Assembly: GCA_951406725.2 (NCBI GenBank)
Contig: OX597833.1
Coordinates: 27,900,001 to 27,964,000, forward strand
DNA: 64,000 nucleotides
Source of the DNA: Octopus vulgaris
Taxonomy: Eukaryota
Direction: 5' to 3'
The notes beneath the pieces are model-generated. The model was not told where the DNA came from, searched no databases, and saw only the letters and a program-made list of their open reading frames with translations. Shown here piece by piece: positions 32,611-42,931 of this stretch (positions within the stretch are counted from its first letter, which is position 1; each line of letters begins with the position of its first letter). The translations under genes were made by a program, and so were the position numbers.

Positions 32611-32926
32611 ATGATGAACCTAAGTTCCTATTCCGACCCACACAACAACCGACATACATCGTTCTTCATAGAGGATATTCTATTGAACAAACCAAAGCGT
32701 CTGCAGGTTCGAGATTACCAGAATTTGGGATTGGGTCGGTCACATTTCTCGGACTATGGTACGGCGGCAGCAGCAGCGGCGGCGGCAGCAGCAGCTTACC
32801 CATATTCAGTACATCATGCTGCGGCCGCCGCTGCTGCTCTGTTACCGCACCAAGTGATCGCTGCACAGAACCAACTTTATATACCGCGGGCCGCAACTGA
32901 GCAGAGTTTCTTGGTTCCTACAACAG
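32611..32926 (+). CDS. Bsx: Brain-specific homeobox protein, coding exon 1
   Basis: Reads MMNLSSYSDPHNNRHTSFFIEDILLNKP...; TSFFIEDILL is the eh1/TN motif of BSX proteins. Contains poly-Ala tracts (A11, A7). Ends at a phase-1 donor CAG|GTAAGT (GT at 32927). Confidence 0.93.
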
Positions 32927-33135
32927 GTAAGTGTAAGCTGAGCAATAGAGAGACGCCATTGGTCTCTCTGTTAGATGTTTCCTTGTCTGATTTTACTTAT
33001 AAAGATGTCTAAATATATTTATATATATTTAGGCATTTTTATACAGACACACACACACATAAATAAATACATGCATACATACATACATACATACATACAT
33101 ACATGCATGCATGCATGCATGCATACATACATACA

Positions 33136-33207
<72 letters not shown>

Positions 33208-33814
33208 CTTTGTGAGTTGATTTGGTGGACGGAAAGAAGCCCGTCATATGTGTGTGGACGTGTGTTTTTGTGCTCGTACTTGTCACTTCATCCACCACTT
33301 GACAACCAGCGTTGGTGTGTTTACGTCCCGGTAACTTAGCGGTTCGGCAAAGGAAATCCGATTGAATATGTACCAGGCTTTAAAAATATAAGTCCTGGTG
33401 TAGATTCATTCGACCAAAAATACTTCAAGACGGTGCCCCAGCATGGCCACAGTCTGACTGAAACAGGTAAATGATATAAACACACACACACATACACGTG
33501 TGTGTGTGTGTGTGTGTGTATTCTTTAACAAGAATAGTATTGACATTGATTTTGAAGTTTCGGCCAGTTAAGCTGTCATTGGACAGTTGTGCATTTGTTC
33601 ATTTAAGTTCATCCTGGTTTTGTGTAGTCTTTGTTAAGATAAAAATTTTCCAAGGATAACTGAGCTCTGTTGAATGGTAATTATGCTGTGTGGAAGTTAC
33701 CCAAATTTAATTAATAAAGGAATTCTTAATACTGTCTAGCCTCAATTTAATGTAAAATTGGTTGTTATTATAACGTAAAAACATCTATACACACAGGTGT
33801 GTGTGTGTGAGTGT

Positions 33815-33888
<74 letters not shown>

Positions 33889-33897
33889 GGATAGATG

Positions 33898-33986
<89 letters not shown>

Positions 33987-34363
33987 CTATAGATATCGAT
34001 ATATGACTGGGTATGTATGAATAAAAACGTATGCATGTATATACGTATGTTTATATACAAAAAAAACATTTGTATAAGAGTAAGAAATTGTTAAGACGTC
34101 ACAAGACCTGTAGAGATTCGTCACATTTATTGGTAGACACAGGTTTCGTGAGCGTCAGTCTGATAATAATTACTGGTATCTTTATATTATATTATATATG
34201 TAAAGTATAATATGTTATACATGTATGTATTTTGTTGTAATTGTCATTTTGGTAAATAAATAAATAAATAAATTGACATAATATAATGCCTAAAAAAATG
34301 TTGAATACCACCTATTAATCCCCTCCATTTTCTTATTGCTGTATATATATATATATATATAAA

Positions 34364-35654
34364 TAGGGTCCAGCAAAAAATTTATACTCGCTTCAGAGAA
34401 AGAAAAACGTGTAGAAATATTTTAATACTGAGTTTATTCAAGCATCACGGTATTAACACAAGTTACATTTAACCTTTTTTGCCTTTTCGCGGTGCTTTTT
34501 CAGTGTGGCTAGCTTTTAAGATCTCTTTCTTTTTTTCATTTCAATGAATAATTTTCAAAAATTTTTTTCATTTTAAAAATATCATATTTTTTACCCTTGG
34601 TTGAGGTTTGATACTGAAAAAGTTAGGTTGGACTTGGTCAGTTGTTGACGTATGAAATAGTCAATGTTCATTGCTTTGAGATTTTAAATAATTGAATCTT
34701 TCTAAGGACATGTTGATGTTATTGTAAACAGCTGTGACAAAATGGTAGAGGGAGATTGTCGTTTAAGGGACGTAAATCCTTTTTTAAAGTGGTCTTACAA
34801 ATTTGAGAATGTTCCTTTTAAAGTTCAACGGCAATGGCGACGCGAGTTTGGAACCTTCAACATGCCTGACAATTTCATGAGCTCGTGATGAGTTCGAAAC
34901 ACATGGTACTCTGTGTGATGTGCAGTAGGGAAAATCCAGTAGATTTCGTACAGTTACAATTGCTGCTTCCTCGGTTATGGTGTTGGAACATTTCACACGC
35001 TCGCGGCAGACGTCTACTGAACAATATAGATGTTAGTACAAATTACAGCGTATTCTTAAAAGAGCTAAGTTGAAACTTTACATATTAATATTATTCCATG
35101 TACTTGACGAAGAAATGAGTTTTGTGAGCGATTTCAACACATAATTGACAAGAATTAAGAGTTTGTGAGGCGAATTGTGTTGTCTGGCAATTACTGGGTA
35201 CCAGAAAATATTTGCTTATATGTGGATAAAGAAGTCAATACATCGGGAGTCAGTATCTGGTGTGGAGTGTCAGCAAGAGGTTTAATAGGACCATTTTTCT
35301 TTTGACGGTACTGTTACTAGTCAAGTGTACTTAGACATCTTACGCACGTCCATCTTACCTGCCATACATGCACTTTATGGAAATGATGAACTTTCCTTTC
35401 AACAAGACGGCGCACCTCCACACCACTGCCGAGACCTGTGTGCAGCAATCCCACTGGACACTTTGACCAACATCGCCCAAGAAGCAGCTCGTCGTGCAGA
35501 TAAATGTCTTGAAGCTAATGGTCACCACTTTGAGCACCTATTGTAGAAATTTAAGATAACTTGTATTGATCCCGTGATGTCTAAATACATTTAGTATTAA
35601 AATATTTCTACACATTTTGCATTTCTTGCAGGGAGTATAGATTTTTTTTGACGA

Positions 35655-35660
<6 letters not shown>
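34364..35660 (+). mobile_element. Decayed Tc1-like DNA transposon (Bsx intron 1)
   Basis: About 100-bp imperfect TIRs; transposase remnants FQQDGAPPH and KCLEANGHHFEHLL. Confidence 0.8.
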
Positions 35661-35700
<40 letters not shown>

Positions 35701-35807
35701 TGTGTCTGTGTGTCTGTGTATGTGTGTGTATGTGTGTGTATGTGTGTGTGTGCGTGTGTATTATGTATGTATATACCTCTGTACGCACGTTCGTGCTTAT
35801 GCATACA

Positions 35808-37473
35808 CAGATACACAATTTCTTATCTGAAATTCCTAAAACTGAAAGTTTTTTCACAGACGTTGTCTGCCCTCCAATGCTCGCACTTGGCACTAAATAT
35901 GACCAGATACGTCCCACACTCAACCCCCATCGTTTGTGTCTCAGCGCTCTTCCTTTTATATGTGCCTCTGATGCACGTTGATCTCTTTTTAATGTTTTGT
36001 GATTTTTATAACGTTGAGGACTGTGAAAATTTTCCTGTAGTTTCCTGTAAGTAAAAGTGGGGCGTCTTATATAGTCGATAGCACTGAAAACAGAGTTACC
36101 GTAGAAGTTTGATCATGGTGTAACTGAGCGGTGTTTTACAGAAGATTTTGGTGCGGGAATTACCTCAGGATATGATGACATAAAGAAGCAGAGATTAGTT
36201 GTTGAAGTTTTGCCGTGATAGTGATGGATAGAAGATAATGAAAAATCAGAAAACATTGCATAGGGAAAACATTGAAGATCTTGACCCTGTGCTGAACTGC
36301 ATGTTTGATACTGCTGACAGAGTTTTAAGGATACTATTTATGTATATGTTAATGCTGAGAAAAAAAAAGAGATTACTAAATCAACATTAAAGCATACTCG
36401 GCACAAACTTGACCTACGACTTTGTTCGAAAAGAATGAACCTTTAGATGAAGAATTCTATGAGACTAGCGAGAAGATATCATATTTCATTGCCTATGCCA
36501 AAAATGTGTCCACTGAATATGTAACTAATTTAGAGGCAGCAGATCGAAGAAGTGCTGAACATCGACACTGATGAACTAGTGCATTCCTTGAGTAATGAAG
36601 AAATAACTAAAATGGTGTTGAATGAAGTACGAGATTAGTTGTGATGATGCTTATGACATTGCGAAAAGAAGTGAAAAAATTCCCATAGAGAATATGGTGA
36701 AAATGTGTGATTAGTTAATTGCTGGCATAAAACTAGGTGACTATATTAATGAGCGTGAGGCTATGGCGATTTACTCAATTAAAGATCGACATTGCTTAGA
36801 CAGAAATCTATGTTAATGTGACAGATGACACTGGAAGAACTCTTTTAAAATGTTGTCTCTCGTGGTTCTGCTGAACTTGAGATTCCAGTTCCTGTCTGTC
36901 CATCAAAGGTTTAATACCAACTTGAAGATGACGGTAACCATGACAGTGATGACGACATTCATGTTACCCCTTCTCAAGAATATTCATGCTAGGTGTAATA
37001 TACATTTGCTACAAGCTTACATAAATATGTTTGGCTTAATTTGAGCTTGTTCGTGTTTTATTCCCATTCATTTACCAGTTTATTACTATACAAATAAATT
37101 ATATTATTCAAAGTCTCTATCCCACTCAGCGTAAATATTCATAACACTAGGCGTTTGGTACGTAGGTGTTTTGTTAAATGTGTAGTTTTACATCATCCTA
37201 ATCTAACCAGTGATATTTTCTTCAAAATTCTGCTAAGTTAGCAAAACTTTCAACATGCCCTACTCACCAAGACCTACAAATACTTTAAATGCACTGTAAT
37301 AGTATCCTCTATGGTCTGAAAAGTTAAGGTCAACTTATGATCGACACATACAAATCAGAATTTTGCTTACAGAGTTGGTGGGCATACTGTGCTACCATTT
37401 CCAAATTCCGAACAATTCAAAATTTCGAAATATACCGTGTCCCAAGGGTTTCAGATAAGAGATTGTGTATCAG
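35808..37473 (+). mobile_element. Decayed pogo/Tigger-like DNA transposon (Bsx intron 1)
   Basis: TIRs CAGATACACAATTTCTTATCTGAAA / TTTCAGATAAGAGATTGTGTATCAG. Broken coding remnants resemble the CENP-B-type HTH and Tigger C-terminus (RKTLHRENIEDLDPVL; QMTLEELF). Confidence 0.65.
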
Positions 37474-37890
37474 TGTGTGTGTGTGTGTGAGTGAAAGTCT
37501 ATGAGAATTACCTAATAAGTTTTGAAGTTTAAAGGTAATGTTATTTTTTTAAATTGTTTTTTAAAAATGTTTCCTAGTATGTGGGCGCTTTATATATATA
37601 TCTATGTATGTATGTATGTATATATATATATATATAAAAATAGTAATGCAATAAGAGAGTATTGCTTTCCAGTAAAGAATAGCCCGTGAGGGAAAATTAT
37701 ACATAGAAGTAAATATATGGCACAACGAAGTACCGATATTTACTGGAAAATAGCGAACGTAATAAATACGACGCTAATGTATAGCTTCACCGCGTATGTA
37801 CCAGCAAAAATGCGTGTGTGCAACAAACTTGAAAAAATTGTCTTACCTCCAGGGAGAACATCTGAAAGATGAAATACCTAGATAGGGATA

Positions 37891-37963
37891 ATGTGGGACC
37901 GGTTTCAGATTTTTCAAGATATGTCTGCACACATATACTTGATTTATCTTCATCAGCCAACAT
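37891..37963 (-). ncRNA. Mirror copy of the hammerhead ribozyme on the minus strand
   Basis: Exact reverse complement of 38086-38158, in the left arm of the palindrome. Confidence 0.85.
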
Positions 37964-38085
37964 ATACCCGACAACATTTCAGATGTTGCCACATCAATGC
38001 CAATACACTCGTTCTGTCAGCGTTTTGGCGTTTCAGTCGAGTGTATTGGCATTGATGTGGCAACATCTGAAATGTTGTCGGGTAT

Positions 38086-38158
38086 ATGTTGGCTGATGAA
38101 GATAAATCAAGTATATGTGTGCAGACATATCTTGAAAAATCTGAAACCGGTCCCACAT
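38086..38158 (+). ncRNA. Minimal type-I hammerhead ribozyme (Penelope-type), intact core
   Basis: Helix I ATGT(T)GG/CCACAT; CTGATGA 38093-38099; helix II AGAT/ATCT extended by TCAAG-ATATGT/ACATAT-CTTGA; GAAA 38143-38146; palindromic helix III ACCGGT; predicted cleavage after GTC (38152). Confidence 0.85.
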
Positions 38159-38543
38159 TATCCCTATCTAGGTATTTCATCTTTCAGATGTTCTCCCTGG
38201 AGGTAAGACAATTTTTTTCAAGTTTGTTGCACACACGCATTTTTGCTGGTACATACGCGGTGAAGCTATATATTAGCGTCGTATTTATTACGTTCGCTAT
38301 TTTCCAGTAAATATCGGTACTTCGTTGTGCCATATATTTACTTATATATATACTTTTAGTTGAGCAAATCTTTTAGTTGAGCAAATCGACCCGAGAGCTT
38401 CTTCTGTGTAAGCCTAGTACTTATTCTATCTGTCTCTTTTGCCGAACCGCTAAGTTACGGGACGTAAACACATCATAATCGGTTGTCAAGCGATGCTGGG
38501 GGGACAAACACAGACACACAAACATATACACACATACATACAC

Positions 38544-38605
<62 letters not shown>

Positions 38606-40431
38606 GACGGGCTTCTTCCAGTTTCCGTCTACAAAATCTACTCACAAGGCTTTGGTCGGCCCGAGGCTATAGTAGAAGACACTTGCCCAAGGTGCTACGC
38701 AGTGGGACTGAACCCATGATAAGCAAGCTACTTACCACACAGCCACTCCTGTACATGCATATTTCAGGAGTTATAGCACCTTCTACAGCATTACATGGTT
38801 AATGGATTCAGTAACAATCCACGAAAACATTGTTTAAATAGCTACCAGATATAACATAGCTGGGTGGGCGGTAGGGGCGGCCCGCCTAGGCAACACTTTT
38901 AAAGAGGCGGCACTTTTGGGTCTGCTGTAATCAATATGTGTTTTTTCATGGAGTCCGAGAGCAGCAAACGGAAGGGCCGCCCTGGATAGCACACACTCTA
39001 GCTACGCTAGTGGGTGTAACACAACTGGATTTTACAAAATGAAACACATTCCTGGCAACTGGTGCGAACATATTAATTGCTGGCTGGAACGCCGTATTCC
39101 ATTATGTAACCATAATATACCAAGTAAATTAATGGCTTATCAGTCAATACTGTACCCCACCTGTGTTAGTGGTGGAATTAAATCATTTTTTAAAAGTTAT
39201 TTCTATAGTTTTGTATTGAAATTACAGCCAGTGCTGAAAGTTACGACGTTTCGTAAACGAATACGTCCATGTAAGCAATGTGCTCGAAGACAGAAACATA
39301 GGTAACGGATGTACATGCACATTTCAGTTCTTACTCCTTCTTCAGCACCACATCCAACCCATTAACCATCCAGTAGCTCATTGCTTAAACAGCCATTCAA
39401 TTTAACGGTGTGATACAATTGGATATACCAATTTTACGCATTGGTTTCAAATTTTGTCACAAGGCCAGAAATTCCGGGAAGGGGTTAAGTCGATTACATT
39501 GATCCCAGTGCTCGACTGGTACTAATTTTATCGATCTCGAAAGGTTGAAAGGAAAAGTCGGCGTTGCCAGAATTTTAATTCAGAACCTAAAAACGGACGA
39601 AATGCGGCAAAGCCTTTTTTTCCGGTTTACTAACGATACTGCTAGCTCAACACCCGACTAATTTTACATATTAAACACATTCCTAGCACTACTACCATCA
39701 AAACACCCTCTCGCCGCTACCTTCACAACTGCTACCATAACAATTACAAAAATACCATCATCCTTGGCCACCAACACCGCCAATCCCACCACATCCATTA
39801 AAACTACCACCTTGGCAATCGTCACAAGTATCACCAATGACCATCACCACCACCTCCAAAACCATCATTGCTACTACAACCGGTAATGCCACGAGCGGTC
39901 ATCTATATAGTCACACAGCAAGCTAGAAATATCAACCAAATCTCCACAAATCACTCTTTACTCTGAAAAATATATGGAACGACACATTAAATATTGTTTA
40001 TCTCCACTTAAACGTGGATGTTCTGTTAAAACAAACTATACTGCGGTAGATGCCATGAGAGAAACTCCCGTATTGGCTTTTGGTGCAAAATGCACTCTTT
40101 TTTATATCGCTAGTGGGGATATAAATCTCCACCCGCTCCAACGTAATGACCGATATAACCTTAAATATACGGGTGGTTACGGATGGAACGCCTTTGAATT
40201 TACTTCTGCTCTGTCACGGCGGATCAGGGATTAAACAGCAACATTAACTCATCACAACGACGACCACTACTAATACCACCATCTCTACTATCACTGCCAC
40301 CATCACCATCATCACAACCACAACCATCACCGTTATCTAATTGATATTCTTTCTCACTCTCTCTCTCTCTCTCTTTTCTCTTTCTCACTCTCTCTCTCTC
40401 TTTTCTCTTTCTCCTCCTCCTACCACTACAG

Positions 40432-40619
40432 GGTTCCCGTTGCCGCCATTATTCCAACATGACGTAAACGGAGGAAAACAGTGTAGACGGAGGAAAGCTA
40501 GGACTGTCTTCAGTGACCAGCAGCTGAATGGCCTGGAGAAGAGGTTCGAAGCCCAGCGGTACCTGTCCACACCAGAGAGAGTGGAACTCGCTTCGCAGCT
40601 CAGTTTGTCGGAAACCCAG
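40432..40619 (+). CDS. Bsx: Brain-specific homeobox protein, coding exon 2 (homeodomain residues 1-44)
   Basis: Long polypyrimidine tract then CTACAG| acceptor; phase 1 matches exon 1 (G+GG=Gly). Encodes [62 protein letters not shown]. Phase-0 donor CAG|GTATGT. Confidence 0.96.
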
Positions 40620-40760: not shown

Positions 40761-42610
40761 CCAACACCTCCACCATCACTACCATCATCGTCATTGCTAT
40801 CATCTTCATTATCGAAACTATCACCACTACCAACACCAGCATCATCATCTTTATTATTCCTAACCTTACCTATAATTCTATTATATACCAACTAAACGAC
40901 AACAACAATATCAACAATATAGTCCTGCGTCACTCTGCGCACAAGAAAAGCGACGAGATGGTCACGGTTGGAATATCTTTGATCATAGGTCTGCTCATTT
41001 AGTGCAGACTTGAGGCAAAACAACAACAGTAACAACACTGCGATCCAACGAGTAAGCGTCTATGTAGCTGCTTGATCAGTTAGAAATAGCAGTCAACACC
41101 CTCTCAAATTACACATAGTAATGGTGCCTTAGATATACAATGTCTGGATAAAAGGCGAGATAGACATGGCTGTAATACTTTTGTCCACGGGTTTACTAGG
41201 TCAGGGTTGACCAGGAGCTAAACAACTACAACGGTACCACTACGCAACAACATTGTATATAAATACAAGTGAAAACACTACACTATGCTCAATACAATAA
41301 AACACTACCACCACCGCTATACATACTCCACTACTACAATATAACCCTACGGATTATACAAAATCAGTAATACCTAATACAAGACTACCAACAATGCTAC
41401 TACATCTACCACCTCCTACCCCAAATGATCCAATCGGTGAACCTCTATGCGCTCATTCGATCTACTAAAACTAATGGCTACCGTCTTAAAGAGAATCTTA
41501 TTGTTAAACTCAATATTACATATCCTAGAAAGACGAGACGATCAGAACTGGAATGGCGGTTGAACGGGGGTAAGTCACCAAAAACACCAATTTTCTCCCA
41601 CTGCATACATAAATGGATAAATAGAAAAGGACAAAATTCTTAGACACCAACTTAAAACACCAGAAAATTTACACAAATAAAAACACAGTTCTAAAATGTC
41701 ACCTTAACTCACTCCAAATCACAATATCCAGCAACAACCGACGTAGCAAGTGTACACACTACAACATTAAAATTACGTAACCATACTGACACGTTTATAC
41801 CAAATTGACACGTTTCATCATCAGGCATTGCAAAAACTCACCAAACAATTAACTTATAAGCCATTAATTATAAATTATACGTTGATACGATAGAACAAAC
41901 CAAACTATGCTGTGGGCCTCATAAGTTATATAAACTTTTACATTTTGTACATAGCAAAAACCACCTTAGAATCTTATGGATCACAACATTATACTGGAAA
42001 TGCCAAAAGTCAACAAAGACGCAAGCATCATGAATGACATTAATATAATAAACATAGAGATACCAGCATCAACCTTACCAAATATCTCACGAGGCTAAGA
42101 TGTATGATAACCGAACATATTCACAAATATCATTACTAGGAATGACTCCAATGCAAACAACACATCCTGGTGTTAAAACAAAACTGACAACATATGAGTG
42201 ACATTTTATCTAGGATTCGATTATTTTTAGATTCTAAACATAATAACCTCAAATAACATTACCCAACATCCCGACAGGAAGCAAACACCTTATCAGACAG
42301 TCTTCTAACATCAGGCCAATGTTCTACCTCACTCCAACCAAACCATGTAAAAACAAAATCCTGAAACCCTTCAAACCAAGATTCGTTGAGCCCGAAAAAG
42401 TAGTCAATATGGGCACAATTGGGATGTCTCTTATGAAAAGTCGGTTCGAATCAGGACTGTTCATGGTTAACAACAAATAACAAGTATCACTAACACACTA
42501 CAAAACCAACACTATCACCACTAAAAAAAACTAGCTCTTCCCACTTTACCCCCATCATTCTTCATCACATCTATCACCATCCTTATTAGTTTCTGTGTTG
42601 TTGTTTGCAG

Positions 42611-42931
42611 GTGAAAACATGGTTCCAGAACAGGAGAATGAAACACAAAAAGATGCAGAGAAAAGTGCACGAGGATCACGAGATGCGCAAAACTTCGAAA
42701 TCAACAGAACCGGGTAACCACACGGCTACATCGAGTTGCAACCGGAAGCAGTCGGGTCTCGATGACTTGACATTGGTTTCGGTGGATGCTGAAGTGGACG
42801 TTGATTCGGAAATGGATAGTTCCCGGGAACTCAGCCACCATGGGGATCCTTGTTCAGACATTGATACCGTTGAAATCAACGTAGTGGACACGGACGCAGC
42901 TCGCTACCGGAGAGCCCTCTTAAATAGCTGA
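42611..42931 (+). CDS. Bsx: Brain-specific homeobox protein, coding exon 3 (homeodomain helix 3 and acidic C-terminus)
   Basis: Acceptor TTTGCAG|; reads VKTWFQNRRMKHKKMQ... to TGA at 42929-42931. The joined homeodomain is nearly identical to BSX/bsh (T47, Q50; intron between residues 44 and 45). Spliced CDS is 825 nt = 274 aa. Confidence 0.96.
   Translation: MKTWFQNRRMKHKKMQRKVHEDHEMRKTSKSTEPGNHTATSSCNRKQSGLDDLTLVSVDAEVDVDSEMDSSRELSHHGDPCSDIDTVEINVVDTDAARYRRALLNS

Follow-up and report, generated by a model that had tools for sequence, protein, structure and literature searches.

The window analysed here, a 64,000-nt stretch of Octopus vulgaris DNA to which all positions below refer, carries on its forward strand a homeobox gene whose first intron holds a near-perfect palindrome with a predicted hammerhead motif on each strand. 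The gene has three coding exons, of which exon 2 codes for the homeodomain, and the nearest solved structures of this domain are BarH-like. Of the earlier placement in intron 1 of Bsx, the location in the first intron of a homeobox gene holds, and the homeodomain sequence suggests the name Bsx. By aligning the two halves of the palindrome, near-identical arms of 305 nt (37707-38011) and 306 nt (38038-38343) were obtained, differing at two sites as originally predicted, namely an indel of one nucleotide within a T run and a substitution at 38271. The element is larger than the palindrome, and its left arm extends to about 37636. Likewise, the 26 nt between the arms have the length reported for them but are not a spacer, since 38012-38037 belongs to the right arm, at its 5′ end. 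The features of the locus are as follows.

32611-32926, 40432-40619 and 42611-42931 (+): the three coding exons of the host gene
32927-40431 (+): intron 1 of the host Bsx-type homeobox gene, with exon joins placed from GT/AG signals and reading frame
37591-37635: left (TA)n-rich target tract
37636-38011 (−): left arm, a 5′-truncated copy covering unit positions 27 to ~403 and ending at the tailed 3′ site
37636-37697 (−): tail of ~62 nt, present on the left arm only and lying beyond the palindrome
37891-37963 (−): mirror hammerhead motif of the left arm, predicted cut after 37897
38008-38011: 4-nt microhomology at the head-to-head junction, compatible with both arms
38012-38343 (+): right arm, a 5′-truncated copy covering unit positions 1 to ~332 and ending at the short 3′ site
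38012-38037 (+): the former 26-nt "spacer", element sequence belonging to the right arm only
38086-38158 (+): type I hammerhead motif of the right arm, predicted from sequence and covariation
38086-38092 with 38153-38158 (+): helix I of this motif, followed by core 38093-38099 and the long helix II 38100-38142
38143-38146 (+): GAAA of this motif, followed by the palindromic helix III 38146-38151 and the predicted cut after 38152
38344-38352: right (TA)n target remnant

The left arm is 98.7% identical to the 427-nt unit of a dispersed repeat family, with a BLAST edge at 37634, inside the TA tract, and the final bases of the right arm at its short 3′ site merge into (TA)n. The palindrome is one young insertion of this family between (TA)n tracts, in a microsatellite-rich genome of 2.8 billion bases. 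Adjoining the insertion, a 17-bp tandem duplication was found at the start of another dispersed repeat (38353-38780), and sequence like this repeat also occurs in the flanks of several family loci. The sense arm (+) has, between 38200 and 38310, a splice donor close to consensus (AG/GTAAG near 38203, within a conserved stem) and a pyrimidine-rich acceptor near 38308. The contigs of four presumed-RNA runs cover the unit, but family-wide rather than locus-specifically, and contained no joint at this GT-AG pair.

A full hammerhead core was found on each strand, as had been claimed, with CUGAUGA starting at 38093 (+) and 37956 (−), and placement of the GAAA-CCGG-UC string puts the predicted cuts at the position first proposed on the plus strand and at its mirror on the minus strand. 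The core, the three helices and an open helix I agree with the proposed type I hammerhead of the Penelope-like kind with a palindromic helix III. Position 10.1-11.1 is A-U where the usual pair is G-C, and both GUC and GUA occur as the cut-site triplet across the family. The suggested check against the Rfam hammerhead models gave no gathering-level match in the window and none at E≤10 in 37600-38450, where only generic microRNA hairpin models appeared below threshold. In 26 hand-picked related copies, 97.7% of the cells in the hammerhead helices were paired, compared with 28-41% in slid controls, and two-sided changes occurred at 6 of 22 helix pairs, these being inherited and reflecting few independent events; an older subfamily adds a further helix I/II set. 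The predicted hammerhead is thus supported by covariation.

The helix III palindrome measures 6, 10 or 12 nt, according to subfamily, and a perfect palindrome of one of these lengths was present in 58 of the 85 parsed distinct motifs (of 91, three mis-parsed rows being set aside). At loci such as L071, L072, L085, L096 and L105, the 6-nt form is lengthened to 10 and 12 nt, and these longer forms may be able to fold as single-copy ribozymes. By analogy, the palindromic helix III points to cleavage as a dimer: a short helix III of this type hinders cleavage of the single motif, and a dimer completes the helix, according to the available text of PMC4209133, and in PMC7229834 animal retrozymes are described whose cleavage depends on dimers and whose monomers are circular, with Penelope-like elements given as the likely helpers. 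Of nine dimers assayed in a further account, just one was cleaved (bioRxiv 10.64898/2026.07.22.740005). Because such a helix III points to cleavage with a dimer partner, a lone copy would likely be near-silent even without an antisense arm. When the lone motif is folded computationally, the best structure is mispaired (−19.6 kcal/mol, compared with −6.2 kcal/mol for the hand-drawn hammerhead), to which little weight was given since fold energy models do not score the hammerhead core. A further CUGAUGA-U-GAAA string in intron 2 (41775-41840, −) has no helix II and a non-palindromic helix III, and is probably due to chance.

Searching the genome with the hammerhead core pattern returned 333 matches, and with the 3′ 20-mer 714 matches, with no match for either control. 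The right arm gave many matches of 96-99% identity among the 40 scored of 1721 candidates. The unit, defined from tandem copies, is 427 nt long and non-coding, and no match to a Penelope-type protein was found in the window. For counting, the loci of the first 100 listed among the 333 core matches were taken in genome order (87 loci), and 37 loci chosen by similarity or 3′ pattern were added to give 124, with 22 duplicate loci dropped. Two cores were found in 4 of 173 arms, and about 10 two-core tandems but no three-core chain were found genome-wide with the exact pattern, long arrays possibly being collapsed in the assembly; tandem hammerhead units thus exist at the family level only, and none is in tandem at the palindrome locus. 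Folded as a circle, the unit reached −125 kcal/mol, compared with −84.6 ± 4.5 kcal/mol for 60 shuffles (z about −9). Other tandem repeats with CTGATGAAGA regularly spaced were seen at G000:C14:65112361, C28:4368294-4368966, C31:11435994, C51:46064 and C54:47453, of which at least C14:65112361 looks like a separate hammerhead family. This 427-nt family was not found in the literature searched on octopus hammerheads and on inverted, twin-primed or non-autonomous microsatellite-associated Penelope copies, and repeat libraries and supplements may hold it.

The geometry of the palindrome proved common in this family. Among the 87 genome-order loci, 45 are head-to-head and none is tail-to-tail, and 42 carry a single orientation (34 short-ended, 6 tailed and 2 broken); across all 124 loci, 65 are head-to-head, with other arm lengths. 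Two alternative 3′ ends were found, one short and one carrying the additional tail, each listed end being followed with few exceptions by a TA-type microsatellite, and the older subfamily, of about 75% identity, has the same two ends. One short end was paired with one tailed end in all 35 intact pairs of the 87 loci and in all 51 intact pairs of the 124, where 14 further pairs have a broken end. In the 49 pairs with directly adjoining arms, the short arm reached further 5′ in 30 and the tailed arm in 19, arm lengths showed little correlation (rho −0.18, p 0.22), and in 6 pairs the tailed arm extended little beyond the tail itself. Near-symmetric pairs numbered 6 of 49, against 6.5 expected by permutation, so the palindrome in the Bsx-type gene is a symmetric draw from the common landing pattern of the family.

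At the head-to-head junctions, microhomologies of 2-6 nt were found, and an overlap of at least 2 bases was seen in 24 of the 41 junctions that could be measured among the 65 (24 could not), compared with 16% for random breaks, the best-of-pool method inflating the overlap slightly. 5′ truncations were most frequent at unit positions 281-300 (20 of 173 arms), where a predicted hairpin close to the 3′ end has its base. At 13 of the 87 loci the hammerhead is included in both arms, and 9 head-to-head core pairs occur among the first 100 listed core matches. Double-ribozyme palindromes are not enriched: 11 were seen in 32 pairs, against 14 by permutation, in a test biased low by the selection of loci for holding a core.

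The near identity of the arms had been ascribed to recent origin or homogenisation, and the first of these stands. Over 40 loci the mean arm-to-arm divergence was 2.1%, compared with 2.3% to the ten nearest other copies, and 56 private variants were found on one arm against 3 common to both, so that homogenisation of the arms is not needed and was rejected. Because the two arms of a locus differ as much from one another as from other copies, their identity reflects youth, and with arms differing by 0.3% the palindrome is among the youngest insertions. A rare G present in both arms here (38248/37802), seen at 2 of 117 loci, is expected if both arms came from one donor but also fits one conversion event.

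Taken together, we put at roughly 0.8 the probability that this is a non-coding, 427-nt hammerhead repeat family that lands as back-to-back arms in (TA)n and is likely mobilised in trans by the reverse transcriptase and GIY-YIG endonuclease of a Penelope-like element. The palindrome is best read as a non-autonomous Penelope-like insertion, of a non-LTR retrozyme, made by two primings, one on each target strand. In such an insertion, the Penelope-like endonuclease would nick both strands of a (TA)n tract, and from each nick the element RNA would be reverse transcribed, starting at the short site in one case and ~62 nt further, with the tail included, in the other. The two cDNAs would stop independently and then be joined 5′ to 5′ by microhomology, and where both had passed the hammerhead to similar lengths, a palindrome would result. 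Published work gives several of these steps a precedent: PMC8557442 describes an inverted truncated copy in Penelope-like insertions, a tail often at one end and a (TA)n bias, calling the mechanism unresolved, and a purified element cuts and extends both strands, with two internal RNA start sites that delimit the tail (PMC11167929). The same study, as far as its available text goes, reports start sites that did not differ between the strands in vitro and finds ribozyme cleavage dispensable for insertion. Against the two-priming model, the 42 of 87 single-orientation loci would need a very short or lost second arm, and few show such stubs.

As to the template, arms of up to 833 nt run across the predicted cut site, and no pile-up was found there. 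A cleaved linear monomer was rejected: starts at unit positions 138-150 were seen in 5 of 173 arms, close to the number expected under uniformity, and 122 of 173 extend across the motif. A circular RNA template is a weaker inference, since arms exceeding one unit could also arise from uncleaved read-through RNA or from template jumps. More speculatively, the rare two-unit copies might be transcribed, their double hammerheads might cut and ligation might yield a 427-nt circle, around which the enzyme might run and so renew the two-unit donors. A more specific version of the model, in which the family would be a natural, genome-wide record of Penelope-type integration and an enzyme dimer primes both (TA)n strands at strictly one fixed RNA site per strand on circular retrozyme RNA, with microhomology joining, is tentative, and we hold it at somewhat worse than even odds. 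Were it true, antisense self-priming would be replaced as the origin of Penelope inverted repeats, animal retrozyme circles would be tied to the Penelope machinery by an insertion footprint, and a hammerhead would be seen to pass, within one genome, from dimer-only to monomer-capable forms as its palindromic helix III lengthens.

The second arm could instead come from self-priming by fold-back, with either an antisense template or the first cDNA being copied, rather than from a second target priming, which we consider improbable. Self-priming on an antisense template has been proposed for head-to-head Penelope structures (PMC3846280), the junction microhomologies fit it too, and so would the rare variant in both arms here. 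Under a fold-back of single polarity, however, the longer 5′ reach should always fall to the same arm, and both orders were observed (30 and 19 of 49); moreover, the loops are not short, 6 of the 49 pairs have a tailed arm that barely exceeds its tail, and the strict one-tail rule would require an additional trimming step. With no consistent nesting of one arm within the other, two primings at one site per strand fit better than fold-back.

The original prediction further saw the palindrome as a ribozyme with its own cis lock. A read-through transcript is indeed predicted to pair the core within one long hairpin of −572 kcal/mol, with 119 of 123 right-arm bases already paired to the left arm once the ribozyme is finished, so the antisense arm would lock the motif; a special device with its own lock is not borne out by the counts, given 45 of 87 head-to-head loci, 13 of 87 with both arms across the hammerhead, and near-symmetric pairs at the permutation expectation. 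A selected switch, in which the antisense arm blocks an intronic ribozyme in Bsx pre-mRNA or frees it on a signal, or, in a purifying version, in which unlocked sense copies disappear from introns, is very unlikely in our estimate. In favour of such a switch are the modelled pairing of the whole core, also co-transcriptionally, and the host being a developmental homeobox gene; against it, head-to-head is the family default, symmetric pairs are at chance level, the insertion is among the youngest, poor cleavage is reported for single copies of hammerheads whose helix III is of this kind (PMC4209133 and PMC7229834, in their available text), and a hairpin of this stability leaves no plausible switching range. 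No sign of selection for the lock or for a host-gene role was found in the family counts, where the geometry is common to every such insertion and not enriched. The locked ribozyme is likely a by-product, not a gene-control device; under the two-priming reading, the insertion would form a hairpin of ~305 bp in Bsx pre-mRNA, stay uncut and leave with the intron at splicing, with no selected role. That the palindrome arose as an artefact of assembly or of a fold-back read has next to no credibility: DNA contigs break at the microsatellite and none spans the locus, but each arm has natural family sequence absent from the other, the arms differ at two sites, the flanks are unmirrored, and the same geometry recurs in 65 of 124 loci with other arm lengths.

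Elements of the helper class are present in the genome, with reverse transcriptase plus GIY-YIG frames of 781 and 574 aa, and coding Penelope-like families end in (TA)n. One coding Penelope-like copy (L168:1760-5000) has an identical inverted arm of 766 nt, a tail of ~30 nt on one side only, and both ends in (TA)n. In a young coding Penelope-like family (L162-L167, L169 and L170), the 781-aa reverse transcriptase plus GIY-YIG frame lies downstream of another long frame, and the termini are direct repeats. This family also has a hammerhead-like motif whose core is of the U3-A8 type and whose helix III is a different palindrome. No sequence common to the unit and an autonomous element was found in 25 GIY-YIG loci (150 scored of 6136 candidates), nor was any sequence in common with the unit found in 19 loci of the family next to L201. 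A parent element was not among the other hammerhead loci or in the older subfamily, and a Penelope remnant near L112 was rejected as the parent, being old and about 240 nt away. At L201:1150-1510, an old unit copy is joined directly, head-to-head, to a GIY-YIG fragment from a different Penelope-like family; this junction is possibly a chimeric insertion, and that family has no sequence in common with the unit. As no examined autonomous element matches the unit sequence, we infer the Penelope-like helper from the insertion footprint only. For vertebrates, a link between retrozymes and Penelope-like elements has been argued from distribution and phylogeny (bioRxiv 10.64898/2026.07.22.740005).

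A short, young and countable family offers a test of how Penelope-like elements come to have inverted repeats and a tail on one side, a point left without a settled mechanism in the available text of PMC8557442, and its strict short-plus-tail pairing and non-nested arms discriminate between published models. The 427-nt unit is also a ready template for in vitro work with purified Penelope protein. For Bsx the insertion probably matters little, and the interest lies in the family-wide short-plus-tail pairing rule, not in the palindrome locus. In such genomes, long perfect palindromes with paired ribozymes are routine transposon footprints, and each would form long double-stranded RNA in intronic transcripts, a likely substrate for editing or small-RNA pathways.

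Among known systems, LINE-1 twin priming involves two nicks, two primings and an inverted 5′ join by microhomology, as in the octopus model. In LINE-1 inversions, however, the 3′ end is not duplicated and the second site is not fixed, whereas the octopus arms end at fixed sites and overlap. Likenesses are also found in the insertions of Penelope-like elements, which, as described in the available texts, have a head-to-head inverted copy and a one-ended tail, lie in AT-rich or (TA)n targets, form partial tandems, are joined at microhomologies and carry a type I hammerhead in the terminal repeat (PMC8557442, PMC3846280, PMC11167929). Unlike them, the octopus unit has no coding frame and no parent element was found for it, its tail measures ~62 nt against the 30-40 nt given there, and the one-tail rule is strict by count (51 of 51). 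The animal non-LTR retrozymes, so far as described in PMC7229834 and bioRxiv 10.64898/2026.07.22.740005, share with the octopus family a proposed Penelope helper and a GC-poor, strongly folded, non-coding unit that is a few hundred bases long and has a single type I hammerhead, while the octopus copies are mostly dispersed, single or inverted, are known here from DNA copies, and have a unit slightly above the quoted 170-400 nt. In Schistosoma mansoni, opposite-strand hammerheads 100-700 bp apart have been read as truncated Penelope-like elements (PMC4209133); the motifs described there are minimal, whereas the octopus helix II is long and contains an internal loop.
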